The notes beneath the pieces were generated by a model. It was not told the origin of the DNA and made no database searches. It saw only the letters and a list, made by a program, of their open reading frames with translations. A DNA stretch of 64,000 nt, taken from Candidatus Yanofskybacteria bacterium RIFCSPHIGHO2_01_FULL_44_24. Lineage in GTDB: Bacteria > Patescibacteriota > Minisyncoccia > 2-02-FULL-40-12 > GWA2-44-9. The stretch spans positions 1,016 through 65,015 of the forward strand of contig MGJK01000020.1 of NCBI GenBank assembly GCA_001794215.1. Direction: 5' to 3'. Each line of letters opens with the position of its first letter. The stretch's first letter is position 1. The position numbers and the translations under genes were made by a program. This document shows, one piece after another, positions 3,148 to 59,942 of the stretch.

Positions 3148-3651
3148 TTATTCTTTGCTTTCTTTATCTTTATCCTTTGGTTCTTCATTCCCTTCTTTAT
3201 CTTTTGCCGGGGGCGCATCATCTTTTCCGGGTTCTCCGATTTCTCGATAAACCGTACCTAAAACTCCGTTAACAAATTTCCCGGAAGACTCGCCGCCGAA
3301 AGACTTGGCTAATTCAATCGACTCGTTAATGGCGACCTTCGGAGGCACCTCTTCCCTGTTTCCGAAAAGCAATTCATAAAGCCCGACCCGCAAGACATTC
3401 CTATCCACCACCGCAATCTGTTCAAGGGGCCACTGAGGAGCGGCTTTTTCAATAATTAGATCGAGTTCTTTAATATGGCCCATTACGCCGTCAATGAGCT
3501 GGTGAACAAAGGTGCTGTCTTCAAGGCCGGCCGCAAATTCCTCCAAGTTTCTTTTGACTATCTCTGCCAACTCGTCATTTTTCCTGCCTCGAAAATCCCA
3601 CTCATAGAGTGATTGCATAGCTACGCTTCTTGAAAGGTGCCGTGATGCCAA
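3148..3651 (-). CDS. nusB: Transcription antitermination factor NusB (TTG start)
   Basis: [17 protein letters not shown] aligns to the NusB N-terminal RRRARExAxQALY motif. The start codon is TTG. Confidence 0.85.
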
Positions 3652-3759
3652 AATTCAATTTACAATTTACATTTTACAATTTACAATCGATGTCTCAATG
3701 ATCTAATTCTCAAAAATTGAAAATTCGATGAAAATTGGTACTTGAAAATTGAAAATTAT
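3652..3759. repeat. AT-rich heptamer tandem repeats: (CAATTTA)-like at 3656-3687 and (GAAAATT)-like at 3713-3759
   Basis: Direct reading of the spacer between rpmF and nusB. Confidence 0.8.
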
Positions 3760-3977
3760 TTCTGCCTGTGCTTCTGCTTCTCCTTCTTTTTCAGTTCCTT
3801 AGCCAAAACATTAATGATCTCTTTCCCCTTATAGTGGCCGCAATTTTTGCACACCAAATGAGGTAAAATCATTTTTTTACAGTGAGAACAGGCTGTCAAT
3901 TGTTTGGGCTTAAGGGCAAGGTGGCTTCGTCTTCGAAGCTGCTTGCCCTTGGCCATGTGGTGTCTTGGAACTGCCAT
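3756..3977 (-). CDS. rpmF: 50S ribosomal protein L32
   Basis: MAVPRHH...RRSH...CxxC...CxxC zinc-ribbon pattern of bL32. Confidence 0.9.
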   Translation of the reverse strand: MAVPRHHMAKGKQLRRRSHLALKPKQLTACSHCKKMILPHLVCKNCGHYKGKEIINVLAKELKKKEKQKHRQK

Positions 3978-4085
3978 AAGAAGTGGCCCAAAGCTTAAGG
4001 CCCCAGATCTAAAGATTTAAACGTTAAGCTTTAAGTGCAATACTAACACGAAATAATAATTTTTGCAATTGCCTAATCGGCCGAT

Positions 4086-4107
4086 CAAAAAGACCCGAAA
4101 AGGGTCT
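4086..4107 (-). terminator. Rho-independent terminator AAAGACCCgaaaaGGGTCTTT + T-run
   Basis: Perfect 8-bp stem. On the minus strand it is followed by TTTTTGAT, directly after the stop of the metalloprotease gene. Confidence 0.6.
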
Positions 4108-4719
4108 TTAGTCCGGTACGGCATTGATATGGGCAATCCGATCGTCGTATTCGGCATTATGATTGACCAGCCGAATAGCCAAAAAAAACAAATAGGGGTG
4201 CTTTCTCAAGAAATTCGTCTTCCGATCGCTTTCTTTTTTTAACTTTTTAACCACAGAGAGAATCCCCGATTTCCCGGCTATTTCCGCGGCACGAACATCA
4301 ACCATCCAATGAGGCCGAAAGTCATCGCCAAATCTCTCCGCCTCTTCCGCATGAGCAAATTCATGAGCCAATAAGCCCGCTAACTCATCAGGGGTAAACT
4401 CAATCAACGCTTTCTCGGTTATGTAAATGCATTTATAAACCCAGAAGTAATAAGCGTTGAGATAATCTGCTTTGAAAACAATGACATAGCACGGATCATG
4501 GATAGACAGCGAGACTTTAAATCTTTTTCTTGCCTCATTAATCTGCTCATAGTATCGGACGACCTGGTCATTATACAACGAAGCGGCCGGGAAATCGGTT
4601 TTATGCTCTTCTGTCTCAAGAAATCCAAGAGCATAAATATTTATAAGAAGAAAACAGCCAAGCAGACCCGCAAAAAAACGAAAAATCATCCGCCCAAGCC
4701 AGTTTTTATCAAAGAACAT
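4108..4719 (-). CDS. Membrane-anchored HExxH zinc metallopeptidase-like protein
   Basis: N-terminal TM helix; LAHEFAH motif followed by EEAERFGDD. Confidence 0.45.
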   Translation of the reverse strand: MFFDKNWLGRMIFRFFAGLLGCFLLINIYALGFLETEEHKTDFPAASLYNDQVVRYYEQINEARKRFKVSLSIHDPCYVIVFKADYLNAYYFWVYKCIYITEKALIEFTPDELAGLLAHEFAHAEEAERFGDDFRPHWMVDVRAAEIAGKSGILSVVKKLKKESDRKTNFLRKHPYLFFLAIRLVNHNAEYDDRIAHINAVPD

Positions 4720-8753: not shown

Positions 8754-10493
8754 ATGCCGAGAAATTCTATTGACGCAGTCCGCCACTCTCTTGCCCATCT
8801 TTTGGGTGCGGCTGTTTTAGAATTGTATCCCGGTTCTAAATTAGCCATCGGCCCGTCAATCGATGATGGTTTTTACTATGACATAGATGTACGAGGTAAG
8901 ATTTCTGATACCGACCTGCCCCGAATAGAAACAGAGATGAGGAAAATCCTGAAAACCTGGGACAAATTCGAAGAAATAAAGGAAACGGCTCAGTCTGCTA
9001 AAAAACGCTATGTCGGCAACGCCTTCAAGCTCGAACTGATTGAAGAATTAGCACAGAAGAAAGAGAAAATAACCTCCTACCAATCCGGAAAATTTATAGA
9101 TCTTTGCCGGGGAGGCCACGTAGAAAAAGCCTCGGACATAAAGCCTGATTCATTTAAGCTTTCGCGTGTCGCCGGCGCCTATTGGCGGGGAGATGAAAAA
9201 AATCCTCAGCTCACCCGTATTTACGGTTATGCTTTCGGAACTAAAAAGGAACTTGATGACTATGTAAAAATACTCGAAGAAGCCAAAAAGAGAGATCATA
9301 AAAAACTCGGTCCCGAATTAGATCTGTTCACCTTCTCTGACTTAGTCGGTCCGGGGCTTCCCTTATGGACGCCAAAGGGCACTCTGCTGAGAAATATTCT
9401 TGATGACTTCGTATGGAGTCTTAGAAAACAACATGACTATCAGCAAGTCGACATTCCTCACATCACCAAGAAGGAGCTCTACGAAAAAAGCGGCCACTGG
9501 GATAAGTTTCAGGATGAACTATTCAAAATAACTACCCGCGAGGGACATCTTTTCGCCATGAAACCGATGAATTGCCCTCACCATACCCAGATATACGCCC
9601 GCAAGCCCCACAGCTATCGTGAACTGCCCCAACGCTACGCCAATACCACCAAAGACTACCGAGACGAACAAACCGGGGAATTGTCCGGCCTATCGAGAGT
9701 TAGAGCCTTTACCCAGGATGATGCTCACGTTTTCTGCCGAATGAATCAGGTCAAAGAAGAATTCCTGAAGGTTTGGGATATCGTCCATGAATTCTATAAA
9801 TCTTTCGGTTTTGAACTTAAGGTACGTCTTTCCCGCCACGATCCCGAGCATATGGAAAAGTATCTGGGCGAGGAGAAAAAATGGCAGTCGGCCGAAAAAA
9901 TACTTAATGAAATAATAAAAGAAAAGAAGGTTAGAGCAATTGATGGACTCGGCGAAGCGGCTTTTTACGGACCCAAGCTGGATTTTCTGGCAAAAGATTC
10001 GATCGGACGAGAATGGCAGGTGGCAACCATACAGCTGGATATGAACATGCCGGAAAGGTTTGACCTGTCCTGTATTAATGAAAAGGGAGAAAAAGAGAGA
10101 ATTGTAATGATCCATGCGGCTATAATGGGTTCGATAGAGAGATTCATCTCGATAGCGATCGAGCACTACGCCGGAGCTTTTCCGTTATGGCTCTCCCCCG
10201 TTCAGGTCGCGATACTGCCGATATCAGAAAACCAGAATAAGTGGTCAGAGTCCATCGCCGAAGAATTAAGATCAGAGGGTATACGGGTCGAAATTAATTT
10301 CGACAACGAGACTCTCGGCAAGAAGATCCGTCAAGCCGAATTGCAGAAAATCCCCTATCTCCTGATAATCGGCGAAAAAGAGGTCGGCGCAAAAACGGTA
10401 TCCGTTCGCCAGAGGAGTAACGGCGACCTCGGCCAGATGACGATTGATAAACTAAAGGACCGGTTAAAGAGCGAGGTGATCAGTAAAAAGTAA
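8754..10493 (+). CDS. thrS: Threonyl-tRNA synthetase lacking the N-terminal TGS domain
   Basis: Begins in the N2 editing domain (HSLAHLL). Has class II motifs, MNCPHH and an anticodon-binding C-terminus. At 579 aa it is shorter than the usual ~640 aa. Confidence 0.9.
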   Translation: MPRNSIDAVRHSLAHLLGAAVLELYPGSKLAIGPSIDDGFYYDIDVRGKISDTDLPRIETEMRKILKTWDKFEEIKETAQSAKKRYVGNAFKLELIEELAQKKEKITSYQSGKFIDLCRGGHVEKASDIKPDSFKLSRVAGAYWRGDEKNPQLTRIYGYAFGTKKELDDYVKILEEAKKRDHKKLGPELDLFTFSDLVGPGLPLWTPKGTLLRNILDDFVWSLRKQHDYQQVDIPHITKKELYEKSGHWDKFQDELFKITTREGHLFAMKPMNCPHHTQIYARKPHSYRELPQRYANTTKDYRDEQTGELSGLSRVRAFTQDDAHVFCRMNQVKEEFLKVWDIVHEFYKSFGFELKVRLSRHDPEHMEKYLGEEKKWQSAEKILNEIIKEKKVRAIDGLGEAAFYGPKLDFLAKDSIGREWQVATIQLDMNMPERFDLSCINEKGEKERIVMIHAAIMGSIERFISIAIEHYAGAFPLWLSPVQVAILPISENQNKWSESIAEELRSEGIRVEINFDNETLGKKIRQAELQKIPYLLIIGEKEVGAKTVSVRQRSNGDLGQMTIDKLKDRLKSEVISKK

Positions 10494-15184: not shown

Positions 15185-15862
15185 TCACAAGTCTGTACTA
15201 TCGGTCAGGCCCAAGATAAAGTAAAGAACATTCTTGGTCATCTCGAAGACTTCTTGAGGACTCTTACTGCCGTCGATAACATAGCAGTTATCGTAATCCT
15301 GGGCGAAAGCAAGATAATTATTCCTTACCCGCCTTAGATTCTCGATCTCTTCGAACTGATCAAGAACCTTGCCGGATTTGAGCATTCTATCCATCGCAAC
15401 CTCAACCGGAACATCGTAGATTATATTTCCGTCCGGCCAGATAAAATCAGTGCCTGAATACTTAAAAACCTGTTCCTGAATATTCATTAAATCATCGAAG
15501 TTGGCATAGGAATCGGCGCCGAAAACTACAGAAACCGGTCCGCGATCAGCTAAGACGTGAATCCCCGAAGAAATCCAAGGAATAACCCTGTTCCTGTAAT
15601 TCCAGACCCTGTCCCTGAAGTACATCTCCTGGAACTGATAGGAATGCATCTCCGATAACTTCAGGGTCGGGTGCTGCTTTCTCAAAATAGAATAGATCTC
15701 CCGACCGGAAGGTTGATCAGTCGGTTCCTTGGTAAGAGCGAGTTTTAGATCTTTAAAATAAGCCTTTAAAAAGTTGACTGCCCGGGCATACTGTTCGCTT
15801 TTACCGGAACCGTCGATCCCCTCAAAGGTTATAAATTTTCCGGGATACGGATTTGATATCAT
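15185..15862 (-). CDS. tmk: Thymidylate kinase
   Basis: P-loop FITFEGIDGSGKSEQ. Confidence 0.9.
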   Translation of the reverse strand: MISNPYPGKFITFEGIDGSGKSEQYARAVNFLKAYFKDLKLALTKEPTDQPSGREIYSILRKQHPTLKLSEMHSYQFQEMYFRDRVWNYRNRVIPWISSGIHVLADRGPVSVVFGADSYANFDDLMNIQEQVFKYSGTDFIWPDGNIIYDVPVEVAMDRMLKSGKVLDQFEEIENLRRVRNNYLAFAQDYDNCYVIDGSKSPQEVFEMTKNVLYFILGLTDSTDL

Positions 15863-15949
15863 ATCGATCTCCTTAAAAAGAACTGAACTAAAAGATTATA
15901 GAACTTTATAAATCAGGATGCAAGGAGCAATTCCGTCGGCTTCATAAAA

Positions 15950-16430
15950 ACCGCTCAACCTTAAGCTCCGCCGTAACCCATTCAGGGAGGGCACGACATA
16001 ACAGATCTTACTCGCCCCTTGTCCATCTTCAGCACGCCTCCGGCTTTTCCTGCGAAAACCTCGGCTATGTTCGCCCCGCCCTTTCAGATCCAAGCAAAGG
16101 GCGGGGTCTCAAATGCTTCAGATGGACAAGGGGCTTCGTCTTAGTTTTTCGTAGATCACTTAGTCGGATTAAATCTCTATAGACACTGAGCGAGGCCTTG
16201 ACCGTGAAGGGATCTACAGAAAATCATAACGAAGCCTTGGCTTATGAGAGGATTTGCGCAGGCTGACCGAGCCGAGTAAAAGACAAAATTTCAGCTCGCC
16301 TCGCCGAAGCCTACGGCGGAGCGCGGGCAGAAATTTATGGCGTGCCTCGAATAAGCCAAGGCTGAGTGGACTCTATGCCGTACCCTGAATGGGTTGAAGC
16401 AGAGCTTCTTTATGGTGTGTCCTTTATAGA
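15950..16430. repeat. GC-rich noncoding region built from ~34-nt repeat units (consensus roughly CTATGCCGTRCCCTGAATRGGTTRAGGCGRAGC) in both orientations, forming nested perfect inverted repeats
   Basis: Perfect pairings: 15975-15987/16383-16395 (13 bp); 16015-16028/16120-16133 (14 bp); 16074-16084/16096-16106 (11 bp); 16233-16245/16351-16363 (13 bp). Tandem units lie at 16335-16369 and 16373-16405. A homologous copy lies at 37330-37500. Confidence 0.7.
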
Positions 16431-16437
16431 TTGGGGG

Positions 16438-16474
16438 CTAAGCAAGTAAAAATCCCCTCTGGGGATTTTTACTT
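16438..16474 (-). terminator. Hairpin AGCAAGTAAAAATCCCCtctGGGGATTTTTACTTGCT overlapping the rplK stop
   Basis: 17-bp perfect palindrome. The inner GGGG/CCCC stem is followed by ATTTTTACTT on the minus strand. Confidence 0.5.
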
Positions 16475-16891
16475 GCTGACTTCTATGCCCATGGAGCGTG
16501 CCGTGCCTTCGACTATCTTCATCGCGGCATCGACATCATTTGCGTTGAGATCTCCTATTTTTTTCTCGGCTATTTTCCTGACCTGATCTTTGGTTACCTT
16601 TCCGATTTTTTCTTTATTTGGAGTCCCGGAGCCCTTTTCGATTCCGGCCGCAACTCTTAACAGATAGGCCGCTGGAGGAGTTTTTAATTTAAATTCAAAA
16701 GTCCGGTCTTCGTAGATCGTAATCTCAACGGGGATAACTTCGCCCTGCTGAGCCTTGGTTGCCTCGTTGACCTGCTGCATGAACTGTTGGAGATTGATCC
16801 CCTGAGGACCCAAAGCCTGACCGATCTTGGCCGGCTCCAGCGCTCCGCCGGTTACCTGAATTTTTACTATTGTTTTTATTTTCTTCGCCAT
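16469..16891 (-). CDS. rplK: 50S ribosomal protein L11
   Basis: [16 protein letters not shown]...[14 protein letters not shown] is the L11 family signature. The track ORF starts 21 nt further upstream at 16912. Confidence 0.9.
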
Positions 16892-17062
16892 AACTTGTTC
16901 GCCCTCCGCCAACTTTCGTTAGGCGGTACGGACCCTTCGGGTTCTCTCAACTTCTTTGTTAAAACCTGCGGTCCTCCCTCGCCATAGTTCACTATGGCTC
17001 GATCCGGTCCTCGGTTTTACCTCGAATTTGAGCAAACGACCTGCGTTATCAGTGCCACATAT

Positions 17063-22532: not shown

Positions 22533-22812
22533 CGCGGGCGACGGGGCTCGAACCCGCAACCTCATCCGTGCACTTATCTAATATTTTCATATTAGGGTGG
22601 ACTATATCTTGCTCGTGTCTCAATAGAATTAAGATTTAGAGTCTCTGGTATCTAGTCTCTACGGCGCCCCCGCCATAGCGGGGTTCCCACGGTATTACCC
22701 GAGCTTTCGCTGTAGGGCTTCACCGTTATCCCAAAGTTATTCATCTTATAGTTTCCTATAAGAGCTGCGTGACTCCACAGGGATGCGATCTAACCAATTG
22801 ATCTACGCCCGC
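22533..22812 (-). tRNA. tRNA-Asp(GUC) interrupted by a group I intron between positions 35 and 36 (exon 1 22812-22777, exon 2 22570-22533)
   Basis: Spliced sequence: GCGGGCGTAGATCAATTGGTTAGATCGCATCCCTGT|CACGGATGAGGTTGCGGGTTCGAGCCCCGTCGCCCGCG. The cloverleaf is perfect. T-arm GCGGGTTCGAGYCCCGT matches E. coli tRNA-Asp. The discriminator is G73. The anticodon loop is CUGUCAC. CCA is not encoded. Confidence 0.85.
22571..22776 (-). mobile_element. Group I self-splicing intron (IC3 / Azoarcus-like), ~206 nt, with no internal ORF
   Basis: P1 by exon CUGU|G pairing with IGS CGCAG, placing a U.G wobble at the splice site. P2 hairpin CTTATAG-GAAA-CTATAAG. A GCGAAAGC GNRA tetraloop. The conserved GUAGAGACUAGA (J8/7-P7) word. 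The S element AAGATATAGTCC. Terminal G before the 3' splice site. Confidence 0.8.
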
Positions 22813-23564
22813 AATAAATTTTTAAAATAATGCTCAAATATAACCTTTTTTCTGCTTAAATACAACTTCCCGGCATCCTTATACATAAAGTTATATAGAC
22901 CAAAGCTGTCGTTAGAAGAGAAACATAATCGATGACCTTGGGCATAGAATAGAGTCCCTCCCTTAACAACCGCGTACTTTTTTAATACGCCCCAAAGTCC
23001 TTTTAAAAATTTCTTACTTCCTGAGGTAAGGCCGGTTATAATAATTTTGCTTTTATGCTTGCGGTCTTTTTTCTGATATTCCGACGCAGATACATGTCCA
23101 TCACCATCAAAATAGCCTCTTAAAAAATGTGGGGCAAGCGCTCGAGGTATCTTTGGCATTTTTAGAATTAGGCTTTTATTCGGCATAAAGCCCAGACGTA
23201 GAAGATCCTTGAATATCTCCTTGCTTCCAATCTGTATTTGATATGCCTTTTTCCAGTTTTTATTTTGTAAGTTTTTCTTTCTGATATAAATTTTATGATC
23301 AGAGCCTAAACAAAACTTGATCTTCTCAAGAATATCTCGGTCGGTACTATAGAATGCGATAAAATGAGCGCCTCGCTTGTTTTTGATCATATTCCCATCA
23401 GCCGCAAAAAACCCTAAAACATAAGTCATTTCTGGCGACCAATTCTTGAAAAAATCCTCATTCTTAGCTTTAAATACGGGCATTTTACCAATAAATTCTA
23501 CCGCATTTCCGGCAAAATTAAAAGCCCGCATAAAGCGGGCTTTTGAAAATTTTATCTGTCCCAA
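22803..23564 (-). CDS. LAGLIDADG homing endonuclease (double-motif), free-standing, 3' end overlapping the tRNA-Asp 5' end by 10 nt
   Basis: Two LAGLIDADG motifs: LGFFAADGNM and LRGYFDGDGHV. The likely true start is MPVFKAKNEDF at about 23483. The stop TAG lies inside the tRNA acceptor stem. Confidence 0.8.
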   Translation of the reverse strand: MGQIKFSKARFMRAFNFAGNAVEFIGKMPVFKAKNEDFFKNWSPEMTYVLGFFAADGNMIKNKRGAHFIAFYSTDRDILEKIKFCLGSDHKIYIRKKNLQNKNWKKAYQIQIGSKEIFKDLLRLGFMPNKSLILKMPKIPRALAPHFLRGYFDGDGHVSASEYQKKDRKHKSKIIITGLTSGSKKFLKGLWGVLKKYAVVKGGTLFYAQGHRLCFSSNDSFGLYNFMYKDAGKLYLSRKKVIFEHYFKNLLRA

Positions 23565-31065: not shown

Positions 31066-31722
31066 TTAATCCAGTATTTCTGTCTTGAATTTCTTAGCCT
31101 CCTCCATGAAAAAATTCTGCCAATCTTGGATCGGTAGATTCTTAATCATTCTCGGATAATCTTCAGCCTCTGTCGCTTTAACGAACTGGGTCCCAAGCTG
31201 GATAAGGTCGAGGTGCCAATCAAATTTGATTCTGGCCTTCTTTATTAGGTCGCTGACTAAATACCCTTTATGCCGACAAATGGAATATAGATCTATAAAA
31301 TCTCGGGCTTTCGTTCTTTGGTATATCGTAAATAATTTATTTACTCCGATATCTAAAATACTGTCTATCGCTAGGTCTTTCTGTTTCTCTCCTCGATCAA
31401 GTCTGGGAAATGGGAAAAAAGTGAATTCTGCCTTCAAGATCTCATTGTCGAAGTGCAGAAAAAATAGGTTTCTGTTATAGCTCTGCTGAAAATCGATTTT
31501 TTTTATCCGCAAATTTTTCTTTATTTGACTGAAAAAAACATTCAAGTTAAAGATATCGAATTCTTTTTCAGAAAAAAAATCCAGATCTTCCGAGTAACGA
31601 TGGTTGAGATAAAAAGCCGCCAGAGCCGTACCTCCGGTAAGATAAAAATTCTCTGTAATGAACCTGTCGCTCCCAATCTTATCAAGAACAGTAATCTGGT
31701 TTTTAGTAAGTATTTCTTTCAC
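31066..31722 (-). CDS. AbiEii-type nucleotidyltransferase (DUF1814 / type IV toxin-antitoxin toxin family)
   Basis: YLTGGTALAAFYLNHRYSEDLDFF matches the AbiEii NTase signature (GGTAL...HRxSxDLDF). Confidence 0.75.
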   Translation of the reverse strand: MKEILTKNQITVLDKIGSDRFITENFYLTGGTALAAFYLNHRYSEDLDFFSEKEFDIFNLNVFFSQIKKNLRIKKIDFQQSYNRNLFFLHFDNEILKAEFTFFPFPRLDRGEKQKDLAIDSILDIGVNKLFTIYQRTKARDFIDLYSICRHKGYLVSDLIKKARIKFDWHLDLIQLGTQFVKATEAEDYPRMIKNLPIQDWQNFFMEEAKKFKTEILD

Positions 31723-36439: not shown

Positions 36440-36637
36440 CTATTTTGCCATATTTAACAGCTCTTCCAAAGCAACAGGTAAGTCCAAAACTCCATCGCTT
36501 CCGCTAAAATGACCACCGCCTTTTACAATTATAAGCTTCGCGCTCAGTCTATTCCTCAACTCTTCAGCTCTTTCCATCGGAACCCATTCATCATTATCTC
36601 CATGAATTACAAAAACTCGTTTAGGCATTGGGGTCAA
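36440..36637 (-). pseudogene. C-terminal fragment of a second YdeN-family hydrolase (tandem paralog remnant)
   Basis: 65-aa ORF VFVIHGDNDEWVP...GGGHFSGSDGVLDLPVALEELL is parallel to the C-terminus of the 35860-36435 protein but lacks the nucleophile region. Confidence 0.5.
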
Positions 36638-37205
36638 ATAAAAGTTTGAGTTCCTTCATTTTTTTACCATCCATTTTTGCCTCAAAAAGCTTATAAACAA
36701 TCTCTTTTTCCGCAAAGCGTTGATAGATTCCTAATTCCAAAAATTCATCGAAAGTCACCATCTTCAAAGTAATCTTTTCTCCGGCATCAAGACTAGGGTC
36801 GGAAACCCTTTTAAGATCTTTGGCTATGAACGAATATACGGCCCAATCAATTTTACTAGTTGGCTGCTGGGCATCCCAAAGAATAAACCGACCGGCAGCA
36901 TATCCGCTCTCCTCTAATAACTCTCTTTTAGCTGCCGATAGTACATCTTCGCCATCCTCAATTCGTCCGCCAGTTGCTCCTATAAACGACTCCCTCCCCG
37001 GTTGTTGCTGTTGCGTCAGAACAATTCTACCATCGGAGAGAACCGGAAAAACTACCACCGTATCCGGTCTTTTTAATTTTTCGAAAATGGTCTTAGTCCC
37101 ATCAAAAAGCTCTTGTTCCCATTGATAAACATCAAATATTTTACCGCTAAAAACCTTTGTGGCCGATTCTGGAATAGGTTGTTTTGATTCTGGTCGCTTG
37201 ATCAT
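36621..37205 (-). CDS. NUDIX hydrolase
   Basis: Nudix box GGRIEDGEDVLSAAKRELLEESGY. Confidence 0.8.
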   Translation of the reverse strand: MIKRPESKQPIPESATKVFSGKIFDVYQWEQELFDGTKTIFEKLKRPDTVVVFPVLSDGRIVLTQQQQPGRESFIGATGGRIEDGEDVLSAAKRELLEESGYAAGRFILWDAQQPTSKIDWAVYSFIAKDLKRVSDPSLDAGEKITLKMVTFDEFLELGIYQRFAEKEIVYKLFEAKMDGKKMKELKLLFDPNA

Positions 37206-37329
37206 TATTAAGATTAATAAACTCTTTCAAATAATTAGGTGACCTATTTGAAGCATTCGGGACCCCATCTCTTGATCATAAGGGTATTCGCACGGGTTTT
37301 TATCTAAAACACCAAGCGAAGCTTTAACC

Positions 37330-37500
37330 TATGAAGGGATTTACGGACCGCGACTGGCGGGAGTAAAAGGCAAGATTTTATCAAAAATCTATGCCGTGCC
37401 CTGAATAGGTTAAGGCGAAGCGTCTTTATATCATGCCCTTCATTGGCTAAATCCGAGTAAGATTTTATGACGCGCGCCCAATAACCCAAGACTGAGCGCC
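37330..37500. repeat. Second copy of the ~34-nt GC-rich repeat family (units at 37389-37422 and 37465-37500)
   Basis: ctatgccgtgccctgaataggttaaggcgaagcg matches ctatgccgtaccctgaatgggttgaagcagagc at 16373-16405. The flanking gaagggatttac and gagtaaaaggcaag words are also shared with 16208-16290. Confidence 0.7.
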
Positions 37501-40500
37501 TATTTTCTGACTCCCACCCAAATCTTTTTCTGCGGAGCCAATTCTAATTCTTTTTCTACATCGTATGCCTTAGTTCCGGTCTGACCGGCGATAAACTCTT
37601 TTAATAAAACCTCTTTCTTAATCTCCTCGGCCCATTGATTAACCGCCGCCGCCACGTCTTGGTCGTCTGAATGCCATCGGCTGAAAACTTTTTCATCCAG
37701 TCTGTATTTGGCTTCCTTTCGCATATCTTGCATCTGCCTGATCAACTCCCTCACATAACCTTCATGGATAAGCGCCGGATCAAGATCAAAATCAAGCGCA
37801 ATCTCCGCTTCTTGTTTTCTATTGTAGGCTAATTTCTTCACATTTAACTCGTCCTCAATCAAAACCTCGATGTCCTTCTGAAACTTGCCGCTTCTTTTGA
37901 TACTCGCCGAACGAATAGGCTGACGAACTTTCACCTGTTTTTCTTTTCTCAGAGCCAACCCCGCAGCCACAACATTTCGAGCTTCATCCATCTCAGCCTC
38001 CAATTTGAGGTTTATGGATTTCTTATCGGCCGATAGCCAATCGTGGAGGTGTACGCTTAAGGTTCCTGCTTTATAGCCACGATGCATTCTCCTATGGATA
38101 TCTTCGGCAAGAAAAGGAGCAAAAGGGGCTAAGATCTTGGATAAATCCAAAAGTAAAGACCTCAAAAGAACGAGGGCTTCTTTTCTTTTTCGGGAGCGTC
38201 TCAACCACCAATTAGACAGATCTTCGACGACAAATTTCTCCAGACTCCTTGAGGCCGAAGTCGGATCATACTTATCTAAATCAGACGTAACTTGGTCAAC
38301 CAAACCATTGAATTTAGAGAGCATCCATTTGTCTAATAGGTTAGAACTTGAGGCGAACGATTTGTAACTGGAGACTTCTTGCGAGTAAAGTTCGTAAAAT
38401 CTTACACAATTTTGCAAAGTAAATATAAACCCTTTAAGGCGGTCTTGGGCGCTCTTTTTACTTACGACTATGGATTCGCCTAAGGTGCTGGCGGTGTAGA
38501 AATACCAGCGAGTTGCGTCCACTCCGACTAAATCCATTATCTCATCAGGCCTGACCACATTGCCCAAAGATTTGGACATCTTCTTGCCATGCTCATCGAG
38601 GGCATGGCCGTTAACCATAACATTTCTGTAAGGAATCCCTTTGCCAAGCAATGTTGATATGGCCAATAAAGTGTAAAACCAGCCCCGAGTTTGATCGATG
38701 CCTTCTATGATGTAATCTGCCGGAAACTGATCTTTGAATGTTTTTGTATTTTCAAAAGGCCAGTGCCATTGGGCGTAAGGCATCGCTCCGGAATCAAACC
38801 AGACATCGATAAGGTCAGGAACTTTTTTCATAACTGCTCCGCATTTCTGACACTTGATGGAAATTTTATCGATAAATGGCCGATGAAGATCTAATTCTCC
38901 ATATTCATTTCGAGGAAGTGATTTCCATTCTAACGGTTCGAGCGAAGCCAAAGGAGGATACCAGCCTTTTTGCCTGTTTTCCAAAATTTCTTTTTGATCT
39001 TTTCCGGAGGCCATATTGTACAGGAGCCAAAGAGGATCTCCGTGTCCGACGATAAGTATCCGCTTTCCCGAATATTTAGATTCCAGATCGTTAATGAAAT
39101 CCTCCGTCCTCTTTCTGACATCGTTCCAGCTTTCTCCGTCGGGATGAGTTTTAAAATTAAAATCTGGTCTTAGGTCTTTAACCGGACAAAGCCTGTGGGC
39201 TTTGTCCTCGCAGCTTACGCCGTGAACTATTTCTGCAAGCCTTTGATCTTCTTCTACTTTCACATGGATTAGTCTGCCGATAATTTCTGCCGTTTCTTTG
39301 GTACGCATGAAAGGAGAGGTGAAAATGATATCCGCCCCGCCCTTTCGGTCAAGTTCTTTGGCGGCCTTTTCAACCTGCTTTTTCCCAATCGAAGTAAGCA
39401 GGTACTTGTCTGATTTCAACACGGAACTGATTATCATTTTCCCCGATTCATCCCGAGTAGTACTGCCGTGCCGAATAATATAGTATGTATTTTTCCGGCC
39501 TATCGCCCTGCTTTCAATTTCCTTAACCGAACCCAAAACTTCATGGCTCTGGCACTTTACACATTCCCAAACCGGCAACGGAGTACCCCAGTACCGTTCC
39601 CGGGAAAAAGCCCAATCCTTTCCTTCTTTGAGCCACTGGCCGAATCTCCCCTCTTTTATATGCTCGGGAATCCAATTAACCTTGGAGTTATCCTTGATCA
39701 GCTGATCCCGGACTGCCGATATTTTTATAAACCAGGAGCTCTTGGCGTAATAAAGGAGCGGGGAATGGCATCGCCAGCAGAACGGATAATCATGCTCGTA
39801 CTCCTCTTCTTTCAAAAGAGCGTTTTTTGCCTTGAGACTGTCCATTATTTTCTGGGTGGTTTTTTCTTCGGTCGGCTTGTCTTTGTGTTTTACGATCATC
39901 CCGTCAAAGTCCTTCCCCACGCCGGTGAATCTCCCCTGCTCATCAACAGTATGAAATTTGGGCAGGCCTAATTTTGTTCCAAGGACATAATCGTCTTCTC
40001 CGTACATCACGGCCGTATGGACCACGCCCGTACCGTCATCGGTAGAAACAAAATCAGCTTCATAAACTTTATAGGAAGTTTTTGATTTCAGCTCTTTGAT
40101 ATCGAAAAGGGGCTCGTACTCTAAACCAACCAGGTCGCTGCCCTTGAATTTGGAGTCGTGAATTTTCAATCCAGGATCGGCCCTGAAAACTTTCTCAACT
40201 AAATCCGAGGCGAGAATATATCTCTCCCCCTCTTTCTCGACAACTGCATATTCGATGTCCTTGCCCACCGCTAAAGCAACGTTACCCGGAAGCGTCCAGG
40301 GCGTGGTTGTCCAAGCCAGAATATAAGTCATTGCCGGAGACAACTCCTTAATTTTTAGTTTTAAATTTTTAATTTTAAACTTAATAATAACCGACCTGTC
40401 TTTTACTTTTTCATATCCCTGAGCAACCTCATGCGAAGAAAGCGGAGTTCCGCATCTGACGCAAAAAGGCAGAACCTTATGGGCGCGGTACAGTAGCTTT

Positions 40501-40985
40501 TTTTTCCAAATTTGCTGAATGATATACCAGAGAGTTTCTATATAATTATTCTCATAAGTTATATAGGGGTCTTTCATGTCAAGCCAAAAACCCATTTTCC
40601 GGGTCATGGCCTCCCATTCTTCTTTGTATTTCCATACGCTTTCTCTGGCTTTCTTGTTGAATTTCTCGATTCCATAGTTCTCGATGTCTTTTTTGCTTTT
40701 GAACCCAAGTTCTTTCTCGATTTCGATTTCAACCGGCAAACCATGAGTATCCCAGCCCGCCTTTCTTAAAACAAAAAATCCCCGCATAGTTTTATAGCGG
40801 CAATACAGGTCCTTATAAACCCGAGTCAAAAAGTGTCCGATATGAGCCCTCCCGTTAGCAGTCGGCGGTCCTTCAAAAAAAACGAACCTCTTGCCCTTCC
40901 GGCGCAGATCTAAAGACTTTTTAAAAATATCGTTTTTATGCCAAAAATCGAGTGTTTCCGACTCAACTCTCTTGAAATCATACAT
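37500..40985 (-). CDS. ileS: Isoleucyl-tRNA synthetase carrying an inserted histidine-phosphatase (PGAM-like) domain
   Basis: HIGH (PPTANGRAHIGH), the editing-domain TTTPWTLP motif, WFDSG and KMSKS. Residues ~500-695 (nt ~38901-39488) read YYIIRHGSTTRDESGKM ... SPFMRTKETAEII ... ILIVGHGDPLWLL, the RHG / second-His pattern of the His_Phos_1 superfamily. They sit between the CxxC zinc motifs. Confidence 0.9.
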   Translation of the reverse strand: MYDFKRVESETLDFWHKNDIFKKSLDLRRKGKRFVFFEGPPTANGRAHIGHFLTRVYKDLYCRYKTMRGFFVLRKAGWDTHGLPVEIEIEKELGFKSKKDIENYGIEKFNKKARESVWKYKEEWEAMTRKMGFWLDMKDPYITYENNYIETLWYIIQQIWKKKLLYRAHKVLPFCVRCGTPLSSHEVAQGYEKVKDRSVIIKFKIKNLKLKIKELSPAMTYILAWTTTPWTLPGNVALAVGKDIEYAVVEKEGERYILASDLVEKVFRADPGLKIHDSKFKGSDLVGLEYEPLFDIKELKSKTSYKVYEADFVSTDDGTGVVHTAVMYGEDDYVLGTKLGLPKFHTVDEQGRFTGVGKDFDGMIVKHKDKPTEEKTTQKIMDSLKAKNALLKEEEYEHDYPFCWRCHSPLLYYAKSSWFIKISAVRDQLIKDNSKVNWIPEHIKEGRFGQWLKEGKDWAFSRERYWGTPLPVWECVKCQSHEVLGSVKEIESRAIGRKNTYYIIRHGSTTRDESGKMIISSVLKSDKYLLTSIGKKQVEKAAKELDRKGGADIIFTSPFMRTKETAEIIGRLIHVKVEEDQRLAEIVHGVSCEDKAHRLCPVKDLRPDFNFKTHPDGESWNDVRKRTEDFINDLESKYSGKRILIVGHGDPLWLLYNMASGKDQKEILENRQKGWYPPLASLEPLEWKSLPRNEYGELDLHRPFIDKISIKCQKCGAVMKKVPDLIDVWFDSGAMPYAQWHWPFENTKTFKDQFPADYIIEGIDQTRGWFYTLLAISTLLGKGIPYRNVMVNGHALDEHGKKMSKSLGNVVRPDEIMDLVGVDATRWYFYTASTLGESIVVSKKSAQDRLKGFIFTLQNCVRFYELYSQEVSSYKSFASSSNLLDKWMLSKFNGLVDQVTSDLDKYDPTSASRSLEKFVVEDLSNWWLRRSRKRKEALVLLRSLLLDLSKILAPFAPFLAEDIHRRMHRGYKAGTLSVHLHDWLSADKKSINLKLEAEMDEARNVVAAGLALRKEKQVKVRQPIRSASIKRSGKFQKDIEVLIEDELNVKKLAYNRKQEAEIALDFDLDPALIHEGYVRELIRQMQDMRKEAKYRLDEKVFSRWHSDDQDVAAAVNQWAEEIKKEVLLKEFIAGQTGTKAYDVEKELELAPQKKIWVGVRK

Positions 40986-45639: not shown

Positions 45640-46083
45640 ATGAGCGAATACGCTAATAACCCGAAAGCTAACTTTGATTATGAGATCCTCGAAACAATCG
45701 AGGCCGGCATTGTATTGACCGGACAGGAGGTAAAATCGATTAAAAATGGAATGGCGTCGATCAGGGGTTCCTACGTCAAAATAATCAACGAGGAGCCTTT
45801 TCTGATAGGATCTGCGATCCCTCCCTATCAAGCCGCCAACGCCCCGCCCGATTACGAACCGCAAAGATCAAGGAAACTATTAATGTCGAAGAGGCAGATA
45901 GCCTCGCTTATCGGGACATCGAAAGCTCACGGCCTCACCCTCGTACCCCTAAAACTCTACGGTAAAAAAGGCTTCGTAAAACTTCTTGTCGGAGTTGCCA
46001 GAGGTAAGAAAAAATACGATAAGCGCGAAACAATAAAAAAGAAGGACATAGCCCGCGCTAAACAGAGAGGACTCGGGGTTTAG
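45640..46083 (+). CDS. smpB: SsrA-binding protein SmpB
   Basis: NFDYEILETIEAGIVLTGQEVKSIK...YVKIINEEPFL is the SmpB family pattern. The C-terminal tail is basic. Confidence 0.9.
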   Translation: MSEYANNPKANFDYEILETIEAGIVLTGQEVKSIKNGMASIRGSYVKIINEEPFLIGSAIPPYQAANAPPDYEPQRSRKLLMSKRQIASLIGTSKAHGLTLVPLKLYGKKGFVKLLVGVARGKKKYDKRETIKKKDIARAKQRGLGV

Positions 46084-48604: not shown

Positions 48605-48970
48605 GGGGATGTCGGGCTTCGACGAAGCTTACGACCGATAAATGCTGGGGGTGGCATGATCGTTCAGCCACGGAAATCACATCCGATCAATTGAATAGGT
48701 GCCAAAAATTCACCTAATTACGCTTTCGCCTAACATCGTTTAGGTAAGCCATTCCACCGCGGTGTCTACTGGCGGATCATGGAGTGTCATATTGTAGACT
48801 GGACAGTTTTCGTTTTTTTTCTTCCGGAGGCTGTTGAATAAATTAAAAGAAATAGCCGTAGATTATTTTGTCGGTTTTCTACTTTACGGCGAAAGACTAA
48901 ATCGTCTATCTCGGTACACATTTATCGGTATAACTTTCGGACGTGGATTCAACTTCCACCATCTCCACCA
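48605..48970 (+). ncRNA. ssrA: tmRNA (SsrA), one-piece, ~366 nt; tag peptide AKNSPNYAFA
   Basis: 5' GGGGAUGUCGGGCUUCGACG fits the tmRNA 5' consensus. 3' GGACGUGGAUUCAACUUCCACCAUCUCCACCA matches the E. coli 3' end GGACGCGGGUUCAACUCCCGCCAGCUCCACCA. Resume codon GCC at 48701; reading frame GCC AAA AAT TCA CCT AAT TAC GCT TTC GCC TAA with the stop in a hairpin. Confidence 0.9.
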
Positions 48971-51839: not shown

Positions 51840-52604
51840 TCATCTAAAAAATTCCTTCCACTCTGCGGGATAATCTATTTTTATGGTCTTAAACTCTTCC
51901 GTCGTAGCCGTTCTGAACGTAACCTCGGTAGCACATAAGGCTATATCTCTGCCATTCTTAAATCGTAAATCTTCATTCTTAAATCCATATTTAGTATCCC
52001 CCGCTATCGGGTGGCCCGATTCGGAAAGCTGAACCCTTATCTGATGAAACCGACCTGTCTTCGGTTCTATTTTTAGAAGGGAAAATTTATCATTCGCCCT
52101 TACTGTTTCATAATAAAGTTCCGACTCTTTGCCCTCATCGGAAACCTCAGCGATTCTTTCGTCCTCTTTTTTTACCAAAGAATGACGCAATATGCCATTG
52201 GCCGGATCCATTCGTCCGACTACCACTGCATGATATATTTTGCTTACATCCCGGCTCCTGAACTGTTCAGATAACCTTGAAGCGCCCTTGGAGGTCTTGG
52301 CAAATAAAACAATGCCCGCAACTGGCCGGTCTAAACGATGCACGATCCCCAAGAATACATTGCCTGGCTTATTATATTTTTTCTTTAAATATTCCTTAAC
52401 CTCCCCGAAAAGACTGTGGTCGCCGATACTTTTCGAAGAAGCGGGTTGGAACCCGTTAGAAGTCCGACTTGCCAAAGGCATGTCGGCAGACATCCTAAAG
52501 GATGTCTTACTTCTAACGGGTTGAACTAAAACGCCCGCAGGCTTATAAACCGCAATCAGATGATTGTCTTCGTATAATATTTCGAGATTCTTGGCGGAAA
52601 GCAT
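51840..52604 (-). CDS. rluA: RluA-family pseudouridine synthase with an in-frame palindromic-element insertion
   Basis: Catalytic GIVHRLDRPVAG. About 100 nt of nested palindromes (52436-52540) is inserted in frame upstream of the catalytic motif. Confidence 0.8.
   Translation of the reverse strand: MLSAKNLEILYEDNHLIAVYKPAGVLVQPVRSKTSFRMSADMPLASRTSNGFQPASSKSIGDHSLFGEVKEYLKKKYNKPGNVFLGIVHRLDRPVAGIVLFAKTSKGASRLSEQFRSRDVSKIYHAVVVGRMDPANGILRHSLVKKEDERIAEVSDEGKESELYYETVRANDKFSLLKIEPKTGRFHQIRVQLSESGHPIAGDTKYGFKNEDLRFKNGRDIALCATEVTFRTATTEEFKTIKIDYPAEWKEFFR
52436..52540. repeat. RPE-like palindromic element inside the rluA coding sequence
   Basis: Perfect inverted repeat AACCCGTTAGAAGT (52450-52463) / ACTTCTAACGGGTT (52509-52522). 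Inner palindromes GACATCCtaaaGGATGTC, TGCCaaaGGCA and CGGGTTggAACCCG. Confidence 0.75.
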
Positions 52605-54345: not shown

Positions 54346-54813
54346 TTATCGAGTGACCGAGATGGCCTCGTTTAATTCTGCGAGAGGAGCGGTAACGGTA
54401 ATTCTACCTGCGGCACCAGCCTGCATGATAGTGTAGCCGGTATTGGCCGCTGTTCCGCTTGACGGATCCATTACCATCGTCGAAACATAGGTCGGAACAA
54501 TACAGGGGTCAAGATCAATATTTCCTGACGCAGTATCATCTCCGATATTTGTTGCCGTAGCCGGCAATGTTACCGTATCCGTACCGCAAGCGGAGAGCCA
54601 GACCCCTCTTGCGTCAGCCATTCTCTGGGTAACGGCATTCAAGATAGTATTGACATTTGACCATCGCTGGGTGTTTCGAGCCTGGGCAAATTGCCTGGCC
54701 GGATTCAAGGCAACGATGACGACCGCCGCCAAAATAGCGATGATGCCGATAACGACTAAGATTTCGATAAGAGTGAATCCTTTTTGATTTCTCATAAATT
54801 TCATAAAATTCAA
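54346..54813 (-). CDS. Type IV pilin (prepilin-type N-terminal cleavage/methylation domain)
   Basis: MNFMKFMRNQKG|FTLIEILVVIGIIAILAAV class III signal peptide. Confidence 0.75.
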   Translation of the reverse strand: MNFMKFMRNQKGFTLIEILVVIGIIAILAAVVIVALNPARQFAQARNTQRWSNVNTILNAVTQRMADARGVWLSACGTDTVTLPATATNIGDDTASGNIDLDPCIVPTYVSTMVMDPSSGTAANTGYTIMQAGAAGRITVTAPLAELNEAISVTR

Positions 54814-54945
54814 TATTTATTTATATATTAGGTTTTAATTATACCTTTATCCGCCCAAGCGCTTTGGAGCAGATAAATCGACCATTAGTACTAATTTTAC
54901 CATCCCGAGGCTCACTTTAGGATAAGCACTTATCAACATATCCCC

Positions 54946-56397
54946 CTAAAGCTCCTCCCATGATATCTGCTCGTACTGGCTTCCAGTCGGAAAACTCGGC
55001 GGAGGGGAGAAGAGAAGATTGGGATCATAGATGATATTCCTCTGCTGATAGCCGGTGCCGTCGGTATAGGAGAACCCATATTCATCAAAAGTGGCAAGAA
55101 TACCGTAAGTGGTGATAACGGCCCGAGTATGATACGGAGAGCATCTTGGCTGATTACCTTCCGGACCACGGTAATAATTCCTACCGATGCGCCTGTTCTG
55201 CGAAACAATAGCGGCATCAATCCGAAGATCGTCCTCGCTTACCCATCCAACGGTAAAATCTCCCTGAGCAATCAGCCCAATGACATCAGTCCCGTCATAA
55301 TTCGTGTACAGAAGATCTTTATTAACCATAATATCCTTCAGCTTGGAGGGATTCTCGGGCAGAAGACCGGCAGAAATTGTCAGGCGAGCGCCATCAATCT
55401 GGCCGTCGATCCAAAGATGATCCTCCACGAAAATAACCCGATTGGCCGGAAAGGCATAATTTTGAACGAAAACTTCCTGATCGATGCTCCAGCTCCCCCA
55501 ATCCTGCTGACCCTGAACATTTATACAGCCGTTCGGCGTATTAACGGTTTTTTTAACTTTATACAAATCGAAGGTGTCGTCAGTCTTTAAAACTATATGA
55601 TATCCTTCGAATCCCTGTCCGGAAGGACCGAAATAATGTCCGCCTGACTGGGCGTCGCCCTTGATTGCCGCGATACTTGAAGTAATCCCGGCAAAATCTA
55701 CAGCCGGAACGGGAAACTGCCTGCCGGCCATGAAAACATCGGGCCTGTCCGGCACGGCAGCCGGCGGCATCGGATCTGCCGGAGCAACATGCGTATGGAC
55801 GCCGAACTCTTCATTTCCGGAATGTTCGGGATCGTTATAGTCGGTTCTGGCGCTGGTAACTATGTTATGGGCAAGGCCGTCAAAATGAACTCCCCCGTTC
55901 GAATGAACCGGCCCGAAAACTTCCGTACCCGGCGGAAAATATATATCTGAATTAGATACAGCCGCATATTTCACGAACGATGAGCGTCCCATTTTTACCC
56001 TGACCGATCTCTCAATATCGGGGTTAGTTGTAATCTTACCGGTTGACTTTATTGTGACCACTGTTGATCCTTGAACCGGAGAAGTAATGTCGAGAATGAA
56101 TTGACCGATTACATTGCCGTCCTTGTCTTTATAGTCATGCACATACGGTCCGGTCTGGCCGGTGCCATCCTGAAAATCAGCCGGATCATGGGCAAGATGC
56201 CAGCGATAATATTCGGCGCCGGCTTCAGCGATCATAAGCGCCAAAGCCCCGTCATTGCTTCGATGGGAATTTTTTAGCTGAGCATCCACCCAGATAACCA
56301 ATCCGCCTAAAATGACTATGGCAATCGAGCTGAACAATAAAACCATCAGCGCAAGCTGACCTTTCTGTCCTTCTTTGCTTAAAAATTTATTCATCAT
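54946..56397 (-). CDS. Pilus-associated protein with a non-canonical pilin-like N-terminus
   Basis: KGQLALMVLLFSSIAIVILGG hydrophobic N-terminus lacking Glu5; its position is inside the pilin gene cluster. Confidence 0.4.
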   Translation of the reverse strand: MMNKFLSKEGQKGQLALMVLLFSSIAIVILGGLVIWVDAQLKNSHRSNDGALALMIAEAGAEYYRWHLAHDPADFQDGTGQTGPYVHDYKDKDGNVIGQFILDITSPVQGSTVVTIKSTGKITTNPDIERSVRVKMGRSSFVKYAAVSNSDIYFPPGTEVFGPVHSNGGVHFDGLAHNIVTSARTDYNDPEHSGNEEFGVHTHVAPADPMPPAAVPDRPDVFMAGRQFPVPAVDFAGITSSIAAIKGDAQSGGHYFGPSGQGFEGYHIVLKTDDTFDLYKVKKTVNTPNGCINVQGQQDWGSWSIDQEVFVQNYAFPANRVIFVEDHLWIDGQIDGARLTISAGLLPENPSKLKDIMVNKDLLYTNYDGTDVIGLIAQGDFTVGWVSEDDLRIDAAIVSQNRRIGRNYYRGPEGNQPRCSPYHTRAVITTYGILATFDEYGFSYTDGTGYQQRNIIYDPNLLFSPPPSFPTGSQYEQISWEEL

Positions 56398-56978
56398 AGA
56401 TTTCTTATATTAACCGAGGCTGATAAATTGATCTGGGATATCGTATCGGCCGGATTCTGATCAACGGTGATGTTTATTTTTATAAGCCGGACGAGAGGGA
56501 TATTAACGGGGAAATTCAGAGCCGCCTGGCTGCCCGTGTAGCTTGAGTCGTAGTAACTGAAAATATTGCCGGCCGAAGCTAAAACATTATGGACCGTCTC
56601 GTCTATGTCTTCATCGCCGGCAGGATATGCAAGCGGAGATCCGCTGGCCTTGGTCAATCCCCTTTTCAGGATATTGCCGTCTAAAAAGTACCTGATCTTT
56701 TCGGTTAAGCCGTCCCCGTCGATATCGCTGTAAAATGTGATTGAGTTCTGAGAAACAGATTCGATCGCATAAGCTCCGCTTACCGATTGGTTCATTGATT
56801 TCATCTCAGAAACCATTCCCCTCAAAGTAAGCTGTATTTCATACTGGCCGGTGACGCTTTCCCCGAGAAATATTCCAAAATCAGAAATATCCAGGCCGAA
56901 AGAACTTATCGTTAAAGCAAGCCCGGTAAAAATGGTGATGGCGATGATTATTTCTATTAATGTGAAGCCCTTGCTCAA
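56394..56978 (-). CDS. Pseudopilin/minor pilin (TTG start)
   Basis: MSKG|FTLIEIIIAITIFTG. Confidence 0.7.
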   Translation of the reverse strand: MSKGFTLIEIIIAITIFTGLALTISSFGLDISDFGIFLGESVTGQYEIQLTLRGMVSEMKSMNQSVSGAYAIESVSQNSITFYSDIDGDGLTEKIRYFLDGNILKRGLTKASGSPLAYPAGDEDIDETVHNVLASAGNIFSYYDSSYTGSQAALNFPVNIPLVRLIKINITVDQNPADTISQINLSASVNIRNL

Positions 56979-56979
56979 A

Positions 56980-57012
56980 GAATTATGAATTATGAATTAT
57001 GAATTATGAATT
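56980..57012. repeat. (GAATTAT)x4 heptamer tandem repeat upstream of the pseudopilin gene; a degenerate copy at 58803-58845
   Basis: gaattatgaattatgaattatgaattatgaatt. Confidence 0.8.
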
Positions 57013-57043
57013 TAAAATCCATAATTCATAAGCCCATAAATCG

Positions 57044-59936: not shown

Positions 59937-59942
59937 GTGATT

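Follow-up and report, generated by a model that had tools for sequence, protein, structure and literature searches.

We analysed a 64,000-nucleotide (nt) stretch of contig MGJK01000020.1 from the genome of Candidatus Yanofskybacteria bacterium RIFCSPHIGHO2_01_FULL_44_24, hereafter the window, in which tmk (15185–15862, minus strand) and rplK (16469–16912, minus strand) enclose a non-coding gap occupied by a block of nested inverted repeats. Related sequence recurs at 37270–37500, between a NUDIX gene (36621–37205, minus strand; Pfam) and ileS (37500–40985, minus strand). Both loci are built from one repeat family, whose real unit is a module of about 106 nt with a conserved three-way-junction fold. 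Modules M1 and M2 and helices P1, P2 and P3, named in the first list, are described below; loci fetched for comparison carry L numbers.

The gap at 15950–16440 holds six nested inverted repeats with perfect cores of 11–15 bp, where our own arithmetic gives a chance expectation of about 0.05 perfect inverted repeats of at least 11 nt in 671 nt:

15963–15987 with 16383–16407: the outermost repeat (pair I2)
16014–16034 with 16114–16134: contains a perfect 15-mer
16074–16084 with 16096–16106: the long GC-rich P2 of M1
16132–16161 with 16207–16236: pair I1
16233–16251 with 16345–16363: within M2
15965–15975 with 16312–16322: the second arm is a fragment inside the P3 loop of M2

The predicted fold of the block was far more stable than those of 100 shuffled sequences on both strands (z −8.81 on the plus strand and −7.65 on the minus strand; no shuffle was as good). 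In the window the conserved 22-mer TATGCCGTRCCCTGAATRGGTT was found twice, at 16374 and 37390 (0 expected), with an inverted partial copy at 15975–15987. A repeated unit of about 34 nt starts in tandem at 16334, 16370 and 16407 and, at the second locus, at 37386, 37423 and 37462 (period 36–39 nt at both loci), and lies inverted at 15960–16004. A first-pass annotation, made from the letters of the window, had described long-range perfect pairings in the block and a recurrence of the unit between ileS and the NUDIX gene, and both descriptions are borne out: the inverted repeats lie where they had been placed, and the 22-mer and tandem units are present at the second locus. The block had also been called GC-enriched and non-coding; it is non-coding, and its enrichment is only mild (GC 0.52 versus about 0.45 in the flanks). 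Copies of the 34-nt unit, from which the block had been said to be built, are likewise real, although comparison of metagenome loci revealed this unit to be the 3' half of the larger module.

A covariance model of the module, run on the window with filters off, recovered three modules: M1 and M2 in the block, and one at the second locus. The parts of both loci are as follows:

15895–15923, minus strand: promoter-like site of tmk (TTGCAT, 17 nt, TATAAT, read from the sequence), forming the lower gap boundary, outside the repeat
15960–16004, minus strand: orphan 3' half-unit TTATGTCGTGCCCTCCCTGAATGGGTTACGGCGGAGC of the minus-strand element, the "inverted copy" of the first-pass annotation
16009–16137, minus strand: module M1, variant subtype (cmsearch, 23.3 bits, E 1e-3)
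16138–16175, minus strand: linker AAAAACTAAGAC and degenerate 5' half-unit GATTTAATCCGACTAAGTGATCTACG (16150–16175) of the minus-strand element, by comparison with L019 9250–9300
16188–16229, plus strand: 5' half-unit GAGCGAGGCCTTGACCGTGAAGGGATCTACAG (16188–16219) of the plus-strand element and linker AAAATCATAA, with the part order of L020
16230–16368, plus strand: module M2, canonical three-way junction (cmsearch, 100.3 bits, E 3e-24)
16370–16408, plus strand: 3' half-unit CTATGCCGTACCCTGAATGGGTTGAAGCAGAGC, from the sequence
16407–16440, plus strand: degenerate 3' half-unit TTTATGGTGTGTCCTTTATAGATTGGGGGCTAAGC, from the sequence
16441–16477, both strands: bidirectional intrinsic-terminator hairpin of rplK (17 bp, perfect), forming the upper boundary, outside the repeat
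37270–37316, plus strand: degenerate 5' half-unit TCTTGATCATAAGGGTATTCGCACGG, and a small linker hairpin, GGGTTTTTATCTAAAACACC, also seen at other loci
37317–37422, plus strand: canonical 106-nt module (cmsearch, 113.4 bits, E 1e-27)
37423–37500, plus strand: two orphan 3' half-units (37423–37462 and 37462–37500) reaching the ileS stop codon

The block thus consists of two composite elements placed head to head, M1 on the minus and M2 on the plus strand, with orphan half-modules around them. The segments 15960–16004 and 16383–16407 are 3' half-units facing opposite ways, and they pair for that reason alone; the outermost helix (15963–15987 with 16383–16407) therefore joins parts of two opposite-strand elements, and the closed multi-branch fold that had been proposed for the block is a by-product of the head-to-head layout rather than the structure of a single molecule. 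The parts 16138–16175 and 16188–16229 make up a central imperfect palindrome (16132–16236). M1 has a 15-bp P1 with tandem G·A (CUGAAG/CUGAAG), its P2 is long and GC-rich, and its P3 is bulged. The paralogues of M1 are copies in L019 (94% identical) and L022 (87%) and a fragment in L024 (81%); the L022 copy keeps its helices via compensatory changes. M2 carries a 34-nt insertion in its P3 loop, containing a fragment of another 3' arm, TACGGCGGAGC (16312–16322). The module at 37317–37422 runs antisense to both NUDIX and ileS.

The block does not stand in for rplA, which had been thought displaced by it: in the window, as in the relatives L009, L011 and L012, rplK is followed by tmk and thyX, not rplA. 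The missing rplA is an ancestral trait of the lineage, and fits the Parcubacteria subgroup in which L1 is missing (bioRxiv 10.1101/2022.01.07.475337).

Module architecture, covariation and strand

The module folds as a three-way junction with junction strands A, A and GUG. Its parts are, in order, the 5' arm GAAGCnTTnnCCTATGAAGGG; A-TTTAC-GGA, a 4-bp stem with loop GACYG, and GA-GTAAA-A; a hairpin of GNNN plus 7 bp with loop AGCA and a bulged A; GTG; and the 3' arm CCCTGAATAGGnnAAGGCnnAGC. P1 is a variable stem of 12–29 bp, usually interrupted four pairs from the junction by tandem G·A/A·G. P2 comprises UUURC/GYAAA, an internal loop GSA/GA, a 4-bp stem (P2b) and the loop GACYG, and P3 comprises 4 bp, a bulged A, 7 bp and the loop AGCA.

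We aligned ten simple modules with MAFFT without using structure (alignment A2), and scored the three-way junction afterwards. Paired cells amounted to 96.9%, against 72.9% in shuffles; double-sided changes were found in 27 of the 36 pairs, and the covariation score of 0.727 (versus 0.226) was matched by 0 of 500 shuffles. In controls with the partner slid by 1–3 columns, pairing was 35–52%. P2b occurs as CCGC/GCGG, GGCU/AGCC, AGCU/AGCU, GCUC/GAGC, AAUC/GAUU and CCUC/GAGG, fully different in these six variants, with the GACYG loop constant throughout. Across the 17 distinct matches of the covariance model, pairing was 94.9% and 29 of 36 pairs covaried, and the minimum free energy (MFE) fold of the isolated 37317–37422 module was exactly the covariation structure. 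The perfect helices had been taken as a mark of recent propagation; that conclusion is not supported, since the stems differ among copies and compensatory changes keep their pairing.

We then compared the two strands. Paired columns contain 20 G·U against 7 A·C, and the tandem G·A and purine-rich loops are present on one strand only. The module strand was 6–10 kcal/mol more stable than its complement, with MFE values of −44.9 versus −34.9 kcal/mol for the second locus (37317–37422), and −71.0 (minus strand) versus −64.9 kcal/mol (plus strand) for M1. The G·U excess, the one-strand G·A and loops and the stability gap together indicate selection on the single-stranded form of one defined strand; judged from the sequence and the modelled folds, this form could be RNA or DNA alike. 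The unpaired GACYG, AGCA, GUG, GSA/GA and tandem G·A are constant across species while the stems change, and in some intact copies, such as the inner module of L020, the tandem G·A is replaced by Watson–Crick pairs.

RNAalifold favoured a different junction, with UACGG/CCGUG stacked on P1b with an AUU bulge. Covariation of the variable N of TATGNCGTGCC with its partner is seen both in this alternative helix (GU 6, GC 5, CG 3) and in P3a of the three-way junction (AU 6, GC 5). The two junction pairings are mutually exclusive, for example 37342–37346 with 37428–37432 (A2, A3). This double covariation may reflect a conformational switch, or may reflect nothing more than half-units having to pair after nesting.

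Distribution, genomic context and instability

Searching metagenomes with a degenerate arm pattern gave 14 loci, 12 clearly related and two chance-like. Covariance model R1, applied to the fetched DNA, gave 20 matches, 17 of them distinct (two weak), and BLAST added further M1-type copies. The proteins beside the copies in L017, L019, L020, L022 and L024 carry accessions of the window's genome (Ca. Yanofskybacteria GW2011_GWA2_44_9 / RIFCSPHIGHO2_02_FULL_44_12b), which contains at least 11 full modules, spread over 9 intergenic sites; given the narrow scan pattern, the true module number may exceed 11. A second Yanofskybacteria genome (L015/L016) also has copies, as do unbinned contigs from Rifle (L014, L018). 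In one contig from the Hainich aquifer (L026 135–428), the module follows just 3' of the 23S–5S rRNA genes and their terminator, on the same strand. A genome-contig scan with the strict 22-mer, a pattern that was too narrow, gave two chance-like matches. The arm pattern found no match in viral contigs; a loose core pattern picked out 94 stretches there, and the covariance model confirmed none of the 80 listed. BLAST of phages and plasmids returned no match, and cmsearch found no family copy in other loci of the Candidate Phyla Radiation (CPR) fetched for rluA. The family is dispersed through one small genome.

All family copies are intergenic, in mixed orientation relative to the neighbouring genes: the second locus of the window, M2 and the copies in L015, L020, L022 and L024 run antisense to, or converge with, the adjacent genes, whereas M1, L019-5607 and the L026 and L014 copies are sense. 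Head-to-head doublets recur (M1/M2 in the window, twice in L014, and in L019), with spacers down to 30–33 nt in L014. Copies frequently adjoin an intrinsic terminator or the 3' end of a gene (window 16441–16477, L015, L019-5607, L022, L026), the module starting about 10 nt (L015) or about 25 nt (L026) after the terminator, and the block in the window lies upstream of the tmk promoter-like site, between it and the rplK terminator. The promoter/terminator scan performed no better than shuffles, and its thresholds missed the TTGCAT-17-TATAAT site of tmk. L015, L026 and the L014 doublets leave no room for a promoter of their own. The mixed orientation and short spacings argue against a leader or riboswitch and against small RNA genes with their own promoters; a riboswitch or cis-regulatory leader in particular would need a constant sense position in the 5' untranslated region of a defined class of genes, while orientation and neighbours are mixed and M1 lies upstream of the tmk promoter.

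At L014 (1–2258), two module doublets flank two genes, for a membrane protein and an S24/LexA-like peptidase. All four modules there share the 3' flank TAATTAGCA, followed in two of them by the −10-like TGTTATAT.

We compared the rplK–tmk interval with that of three relatives (L009, L011, L012; 50–57% Tmk identity), in which rplK lies upstream of tmk without the block. In L011 and L012 the two genes are direct neighbours, and in L009 two extra genes separate them; the L011 spacer is 117 nt and contains a terminator only, and relatives have an equivalent hairpin directly 3' of rplK. No family sequence was present in the rplK-proximal spacers that were read, and cmsearch found none in those loci. 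The L012 spacer contains a short tandem repeat, CATGCGACCATGGC (9875–9910, 2.5 copies), unrelated to the family.

Contigs of the same population are identical over the rplK–tmk spacer with one exception, LCJR01000001.1 (L005), which lacks exactly 16119–16232 (114 nt) and shows no microhomology at the junction; this deletion may be a true allele or may have arisen in assembly. The modules are flanked by orphan and degenerate half-units, and in L020 copies are nested concentrically in four layers. L014 and L018 have a common core and the same P2 insertion but a different surviving 5' arm, and the M1 paralogues likewise combine a common core with differing flanking arms. Such sharing of cores with different arms points to recombination between GGATTTACGG and TATGNCGTGCC.

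Comparison with known families

Rfam 15, applied to the whole window at gathering thresholds, identified only the transfer-messenger RNA (tmRNA; 48605–48970) and a group I intron (22578–22788). At E ≤ 10, Rfam found nothing on the modules at both loci and four other loci, ribozyme families included, and an ARAGORN tRNA/tmRNA search returned the genuine tmRNA only. The literature search gave no relevant account of a CPR repeat or RNA motif. The module matches no catalogued RNA or repeat family, in agreement with the first-pass annotation, which had been unable to match the block to RNase P RNA, tmRNA, signal recognition particle RNA or group II domain V.

The same searches and the gene calls describe other parts of the window. 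The group I intron (57.8 bits) adjoins a LAGLIDADG homing-endonuclease open reading frame (ORF; 22803–23564, minus strand) between pheS and the IMP dehydrogenase gene, and ARAGORN and Rfam called no rRNA or tRNA as intron host at 22578–23564. An AbiEii-type toxin gene lies at 31066–31722, and smpB (45640–46083) lies 2.5 kb from the tmRNA gene (tag AKNSPNYAFA). A type IV pilus/type II secretion system-like cluster spans 54346–61691 and its products include T2SSF, several N-methyl pilins and a fusion of T2SSE with a receiver domain.

Of the two kinds of family first suggested—a repeat resembling miniature inverted-repeat transposable elements (MITEs) or repetitive extragenic palindromic (REP) sequences, or a structured small RNA—a dispersed repeat family stands, with at least 11 modules in one genome, and the REP signature does not. 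REP sequences and their composites (bacterial interspersed mosaic elements, BIMEs, and REPINs) would be expected to show a 20–40-nt palindrome with 5' GTAG; the unit here is 106 nt, with no GTAG head in A2 or A3. The module resembles them in being extragenic, mosaic in both orientations and recurrent as inverted doublets (M1/M2, L014 twice, L019), and in that its single-strand fold is presumably what is recognised, but differs in that its copies number in the tens rather than hundreds and that no REP-associated tyrosine transposase (RAYT) is present among the 40 ORFs scanned in the 64-kb window.

With MITEs the module shares short, non-coding, multi-copy and nested organisation, inverted-repeat arms and presence or absence between relatives: the block is absent from the L009, L011 and L012 interval, and 11 modules lie in one genome. 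A typical MITE, however, has conserved terminal inverted repeats (TIRs) shared with a parent insertion sequence (IS), whereas the P1 arms here are fully different between subfamilies, so that arms vary and the interior is conserved, the reverse of the typical case. The module flanks AAGCGAAGC and GCGAAGCG are alike, yet they could belong to the fold itself (as a GAA/GAA loop with 2–4 bp), and TAAGCAA stands on both sides of the module in L015 only. In L015 an IS-like element (3269–4509) stands some 275 nt away from the module, with 18-nt TIRs beginning GTTAGACAAT and a 389-amino-acid ORF of weak rve/IS481-like similarity.

Rickettsia palindromic elements (RPEs) are palindromes of about 100–150 nt, present in many copies in a small host-dependent genome without a transposase, that form a stable hairpin and lie in frame in genes. 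The module is like them in size, in copy number within a small host-dependent genome, in the absence of an associated transposase and in its stable fold, and unlike them in having no sequence relation, in its different phylum and in a conserved three-way-junction core with specific loops rather than a simple hairpin; in-frame insertion in genes does not apply to the family, whose copies are all intergenic. Enterobacterial repetitive intergenic consensus (ERIC, or intergenic repeat unit, IRU) sequences and pneumococcal BOX elements are imperfect intergenic palindromes of about 100–130 nt, BOX having the structure A-B(n)-C and ERIC having insertions at fixed sites. The likeness includes the intergenic imperfect palindrome, the modular or mosaic build, larger variants with extra pieces and a fold kept between copies; the module differs in its unrelated sequence, concentric nesting with tandem 37-nt halves, three-way-junction core and CPR host. 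By analogy, RPE, ERIC and BOX appear the closest in behaviour.

The window also contains a separate palindrome that bears on the comparison with RPEs. At 52436–52540, a 105-nt perfect three-way-junction palindrome (z −8.6) without sequence similarity to the module family lies in frame within an RluA/RluC-type pseudouridine synthase ORF (51840–52604, minus strand) and encodes about 35 extra residues. Of 11 aligned homologues, 4 have a core of about 25 residues of this insert, which is identical in a protein only 65% identical overall and absent from the closest homologue (70% identical); the inner hairpins keep their pairing through compensatory changes. This insert is RPE-like in being in frame within a gene, has the module's size and topology, and, being in the same genome, gives indirect support to reading the module as a mobile palindrome.

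Integron attC sites carry a near-invariant AAC...GTT (R''/R') at the base of the fold and form cassette arrays beside intI. In the module, the AAC/GTT in P1 becomes GGC/GCC or AGC/GCU in other copies, and no integrase was present among the window ORFs scanned. A K-turn or box C/D reading of the tandem G·A was rejected, as the 3-nt bulge is missing and the neighbouring pairs show Watson–Crick covariation. Tandem interspersed guide RNA (TIGR) stem-loop arrays were considered seriously: they are found in CPR bacteria, their palindromic stems vary, and processing takes place at a stem-base CUU (PMC12045711; bioRxiv 10.64898/2026.09.09.750476). The module shares with TIGR/Tas the CPR host, the variable palindromic stems, the CUU at the stem base and a short middle hairpin, and is unlike it in lacking variable spacers, the box C/D layout, and an array or tas neighbour in the window.

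Origin of the repeat and rival explanations

The family is dispersed, absent from the rplK–tmk interval in relatives and unstable, and its fold is selected on one strand. We consider it somewhat probable on balance that the block is a pile-up of a lineage-specific, non-autonomous selfish repeat of the MITE/RPE/ERIC/BOX kind, with its fold under selection. Copies have inserted between genes in both orientations, frequently as head-to-head pairs. At propagation, a trans-acting factor encoded elsewhere would recognise the folded single strand, either folded DNA during replication or an RNA copy, and this recognition would keep the fold and loops, as new copies would descend only from fold-competent ones. 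Recombination between GGATTTACGG and TATGNCGTGCC would nest, shuffle and truncate the copies, and would explain both the tandem orphan 3' halves of about 37 nt and the concentric nesting. The minus- and plus-strand elements at 15950–16440 are probably neutral in their place between the rplK terminator and the tmk promoter.

Several observations weigh against a selfish repeat. We found no clear target-site duplication and no conserved TIR or parent transposase; the 40 window ORFs scanned include no transposase, reverse transcriptase, Y1/HUH or Nop gene; and the L015 IS was rejected as parent, because its ends, beginning GTTAGACAAT, are unrelated to the module. The relatives compared, with 50–57% Tmk identity, are too distant to define the insertion boundaries. 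Loops conserved across species together with full stem turnover are equally a signature of functional RNA, and two junction pairings that covary with the same column would be unusual for junk.

These last two points lead to the possibility of a new functional structured RNA class, a multi-copy protein-recruiting RNA or small self-cleaving ribozyme whose active unit would be the three-way junction and for which dispersal and debris would be secondary, as with repeat-borne hammerhead and twister; we regard this as unlikely, though not negligibly so. Strong covariation in every helix, the 4-bp P2b included, the invariance of unpaired nucleotides across species while stems change, and a strand asymmetry of 20 G·U against 7 A·C and 10 kcal/mol would all suit such an RNA, as would the covariation of both alternative junction pairings; with junction strands of 1, 1 and 3 nt, P3 could fold back against P1. 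The genomic placement speaks the other way: many copies lack promoter room, some are placed between a terminator and the promoter that follows it, some run antisense to both neighbours, and read-through of a doublet with a 30-nt spacer would give one long hairpin rather than two junctions. The replacement of the tandem G·A by Watson–Crick pairs in intact copies (the L020 inner module) and the failure of any ribozyme family to score at E ≤ 10 count against it as well. In its fuller form, which we hold to be a minority possibility of similar weight, the class would be confined to Patescibacteria and have a two-state junction, proposed because both pairings covary with the same nucleotide, and its genomic spread would be part of its working rather than decay.

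Placement always between genes, often against terminators or gene 3' ends, and GC-rich hairpins very stable on both strands would also suit a cis element domesticated by the host—a 3' end stabiliser, a read-through barrier or insulator, or a site for a nucleoid or RNA-processing protein, roles like those proposed for REP/BIME and ERIC. We consider this decidedly unlikely: the selected fold is on one strand only, yet orientation relative to transcripts is mixed, the same spacer in relatives has a plain terminator and no block, and a simple barrier needs no sequence-specific loops. Least credible, with hardly any probability left to it, is that the modules are guide RNAs (tigRNAs) of a Tas (Nop-domain) effector, a reading that is already failing. 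The host clade is right, the palindromic stems are variable with conservation only near the junction, CUU often follows the 3' stem (GCGTCTT, GCTTCTT) and a 4-bp hairpin stands between two 9-nt segments. Every copy, however, conserves these segments, AUUUACGGA and GAGUAAAAG, which pair either mutually or with the 3' strand and so leave no variable single-stranded spacers; moreover, there is no box C (CCA)/box D (UG) layout, the extra P3 hairpin has no counterpart, and the copies are spread over at least 9 loci instead of being arrayed at tas, with no Nop-domain ORF in the window.

The insert in the rluA gene suggests that the behaviour of RPEs in Rickettsia has a parallel in another reduced host-dependent lineage. 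If the modules were functional RNAs, they would constitute a new motif with a possible conformational switch. As the fold is unusually well supported, its covariance model can be used for annotating genomes and for seeking a co-occurring partner protein. CPR genomes, of about 1 Mb, are regarded as streamlined; at least 11 copies of the module, with their nesting and an apparent insertion/deletion difference within the population, show that selfish DNA or plasticity through recombination is at work in such a genome as well.

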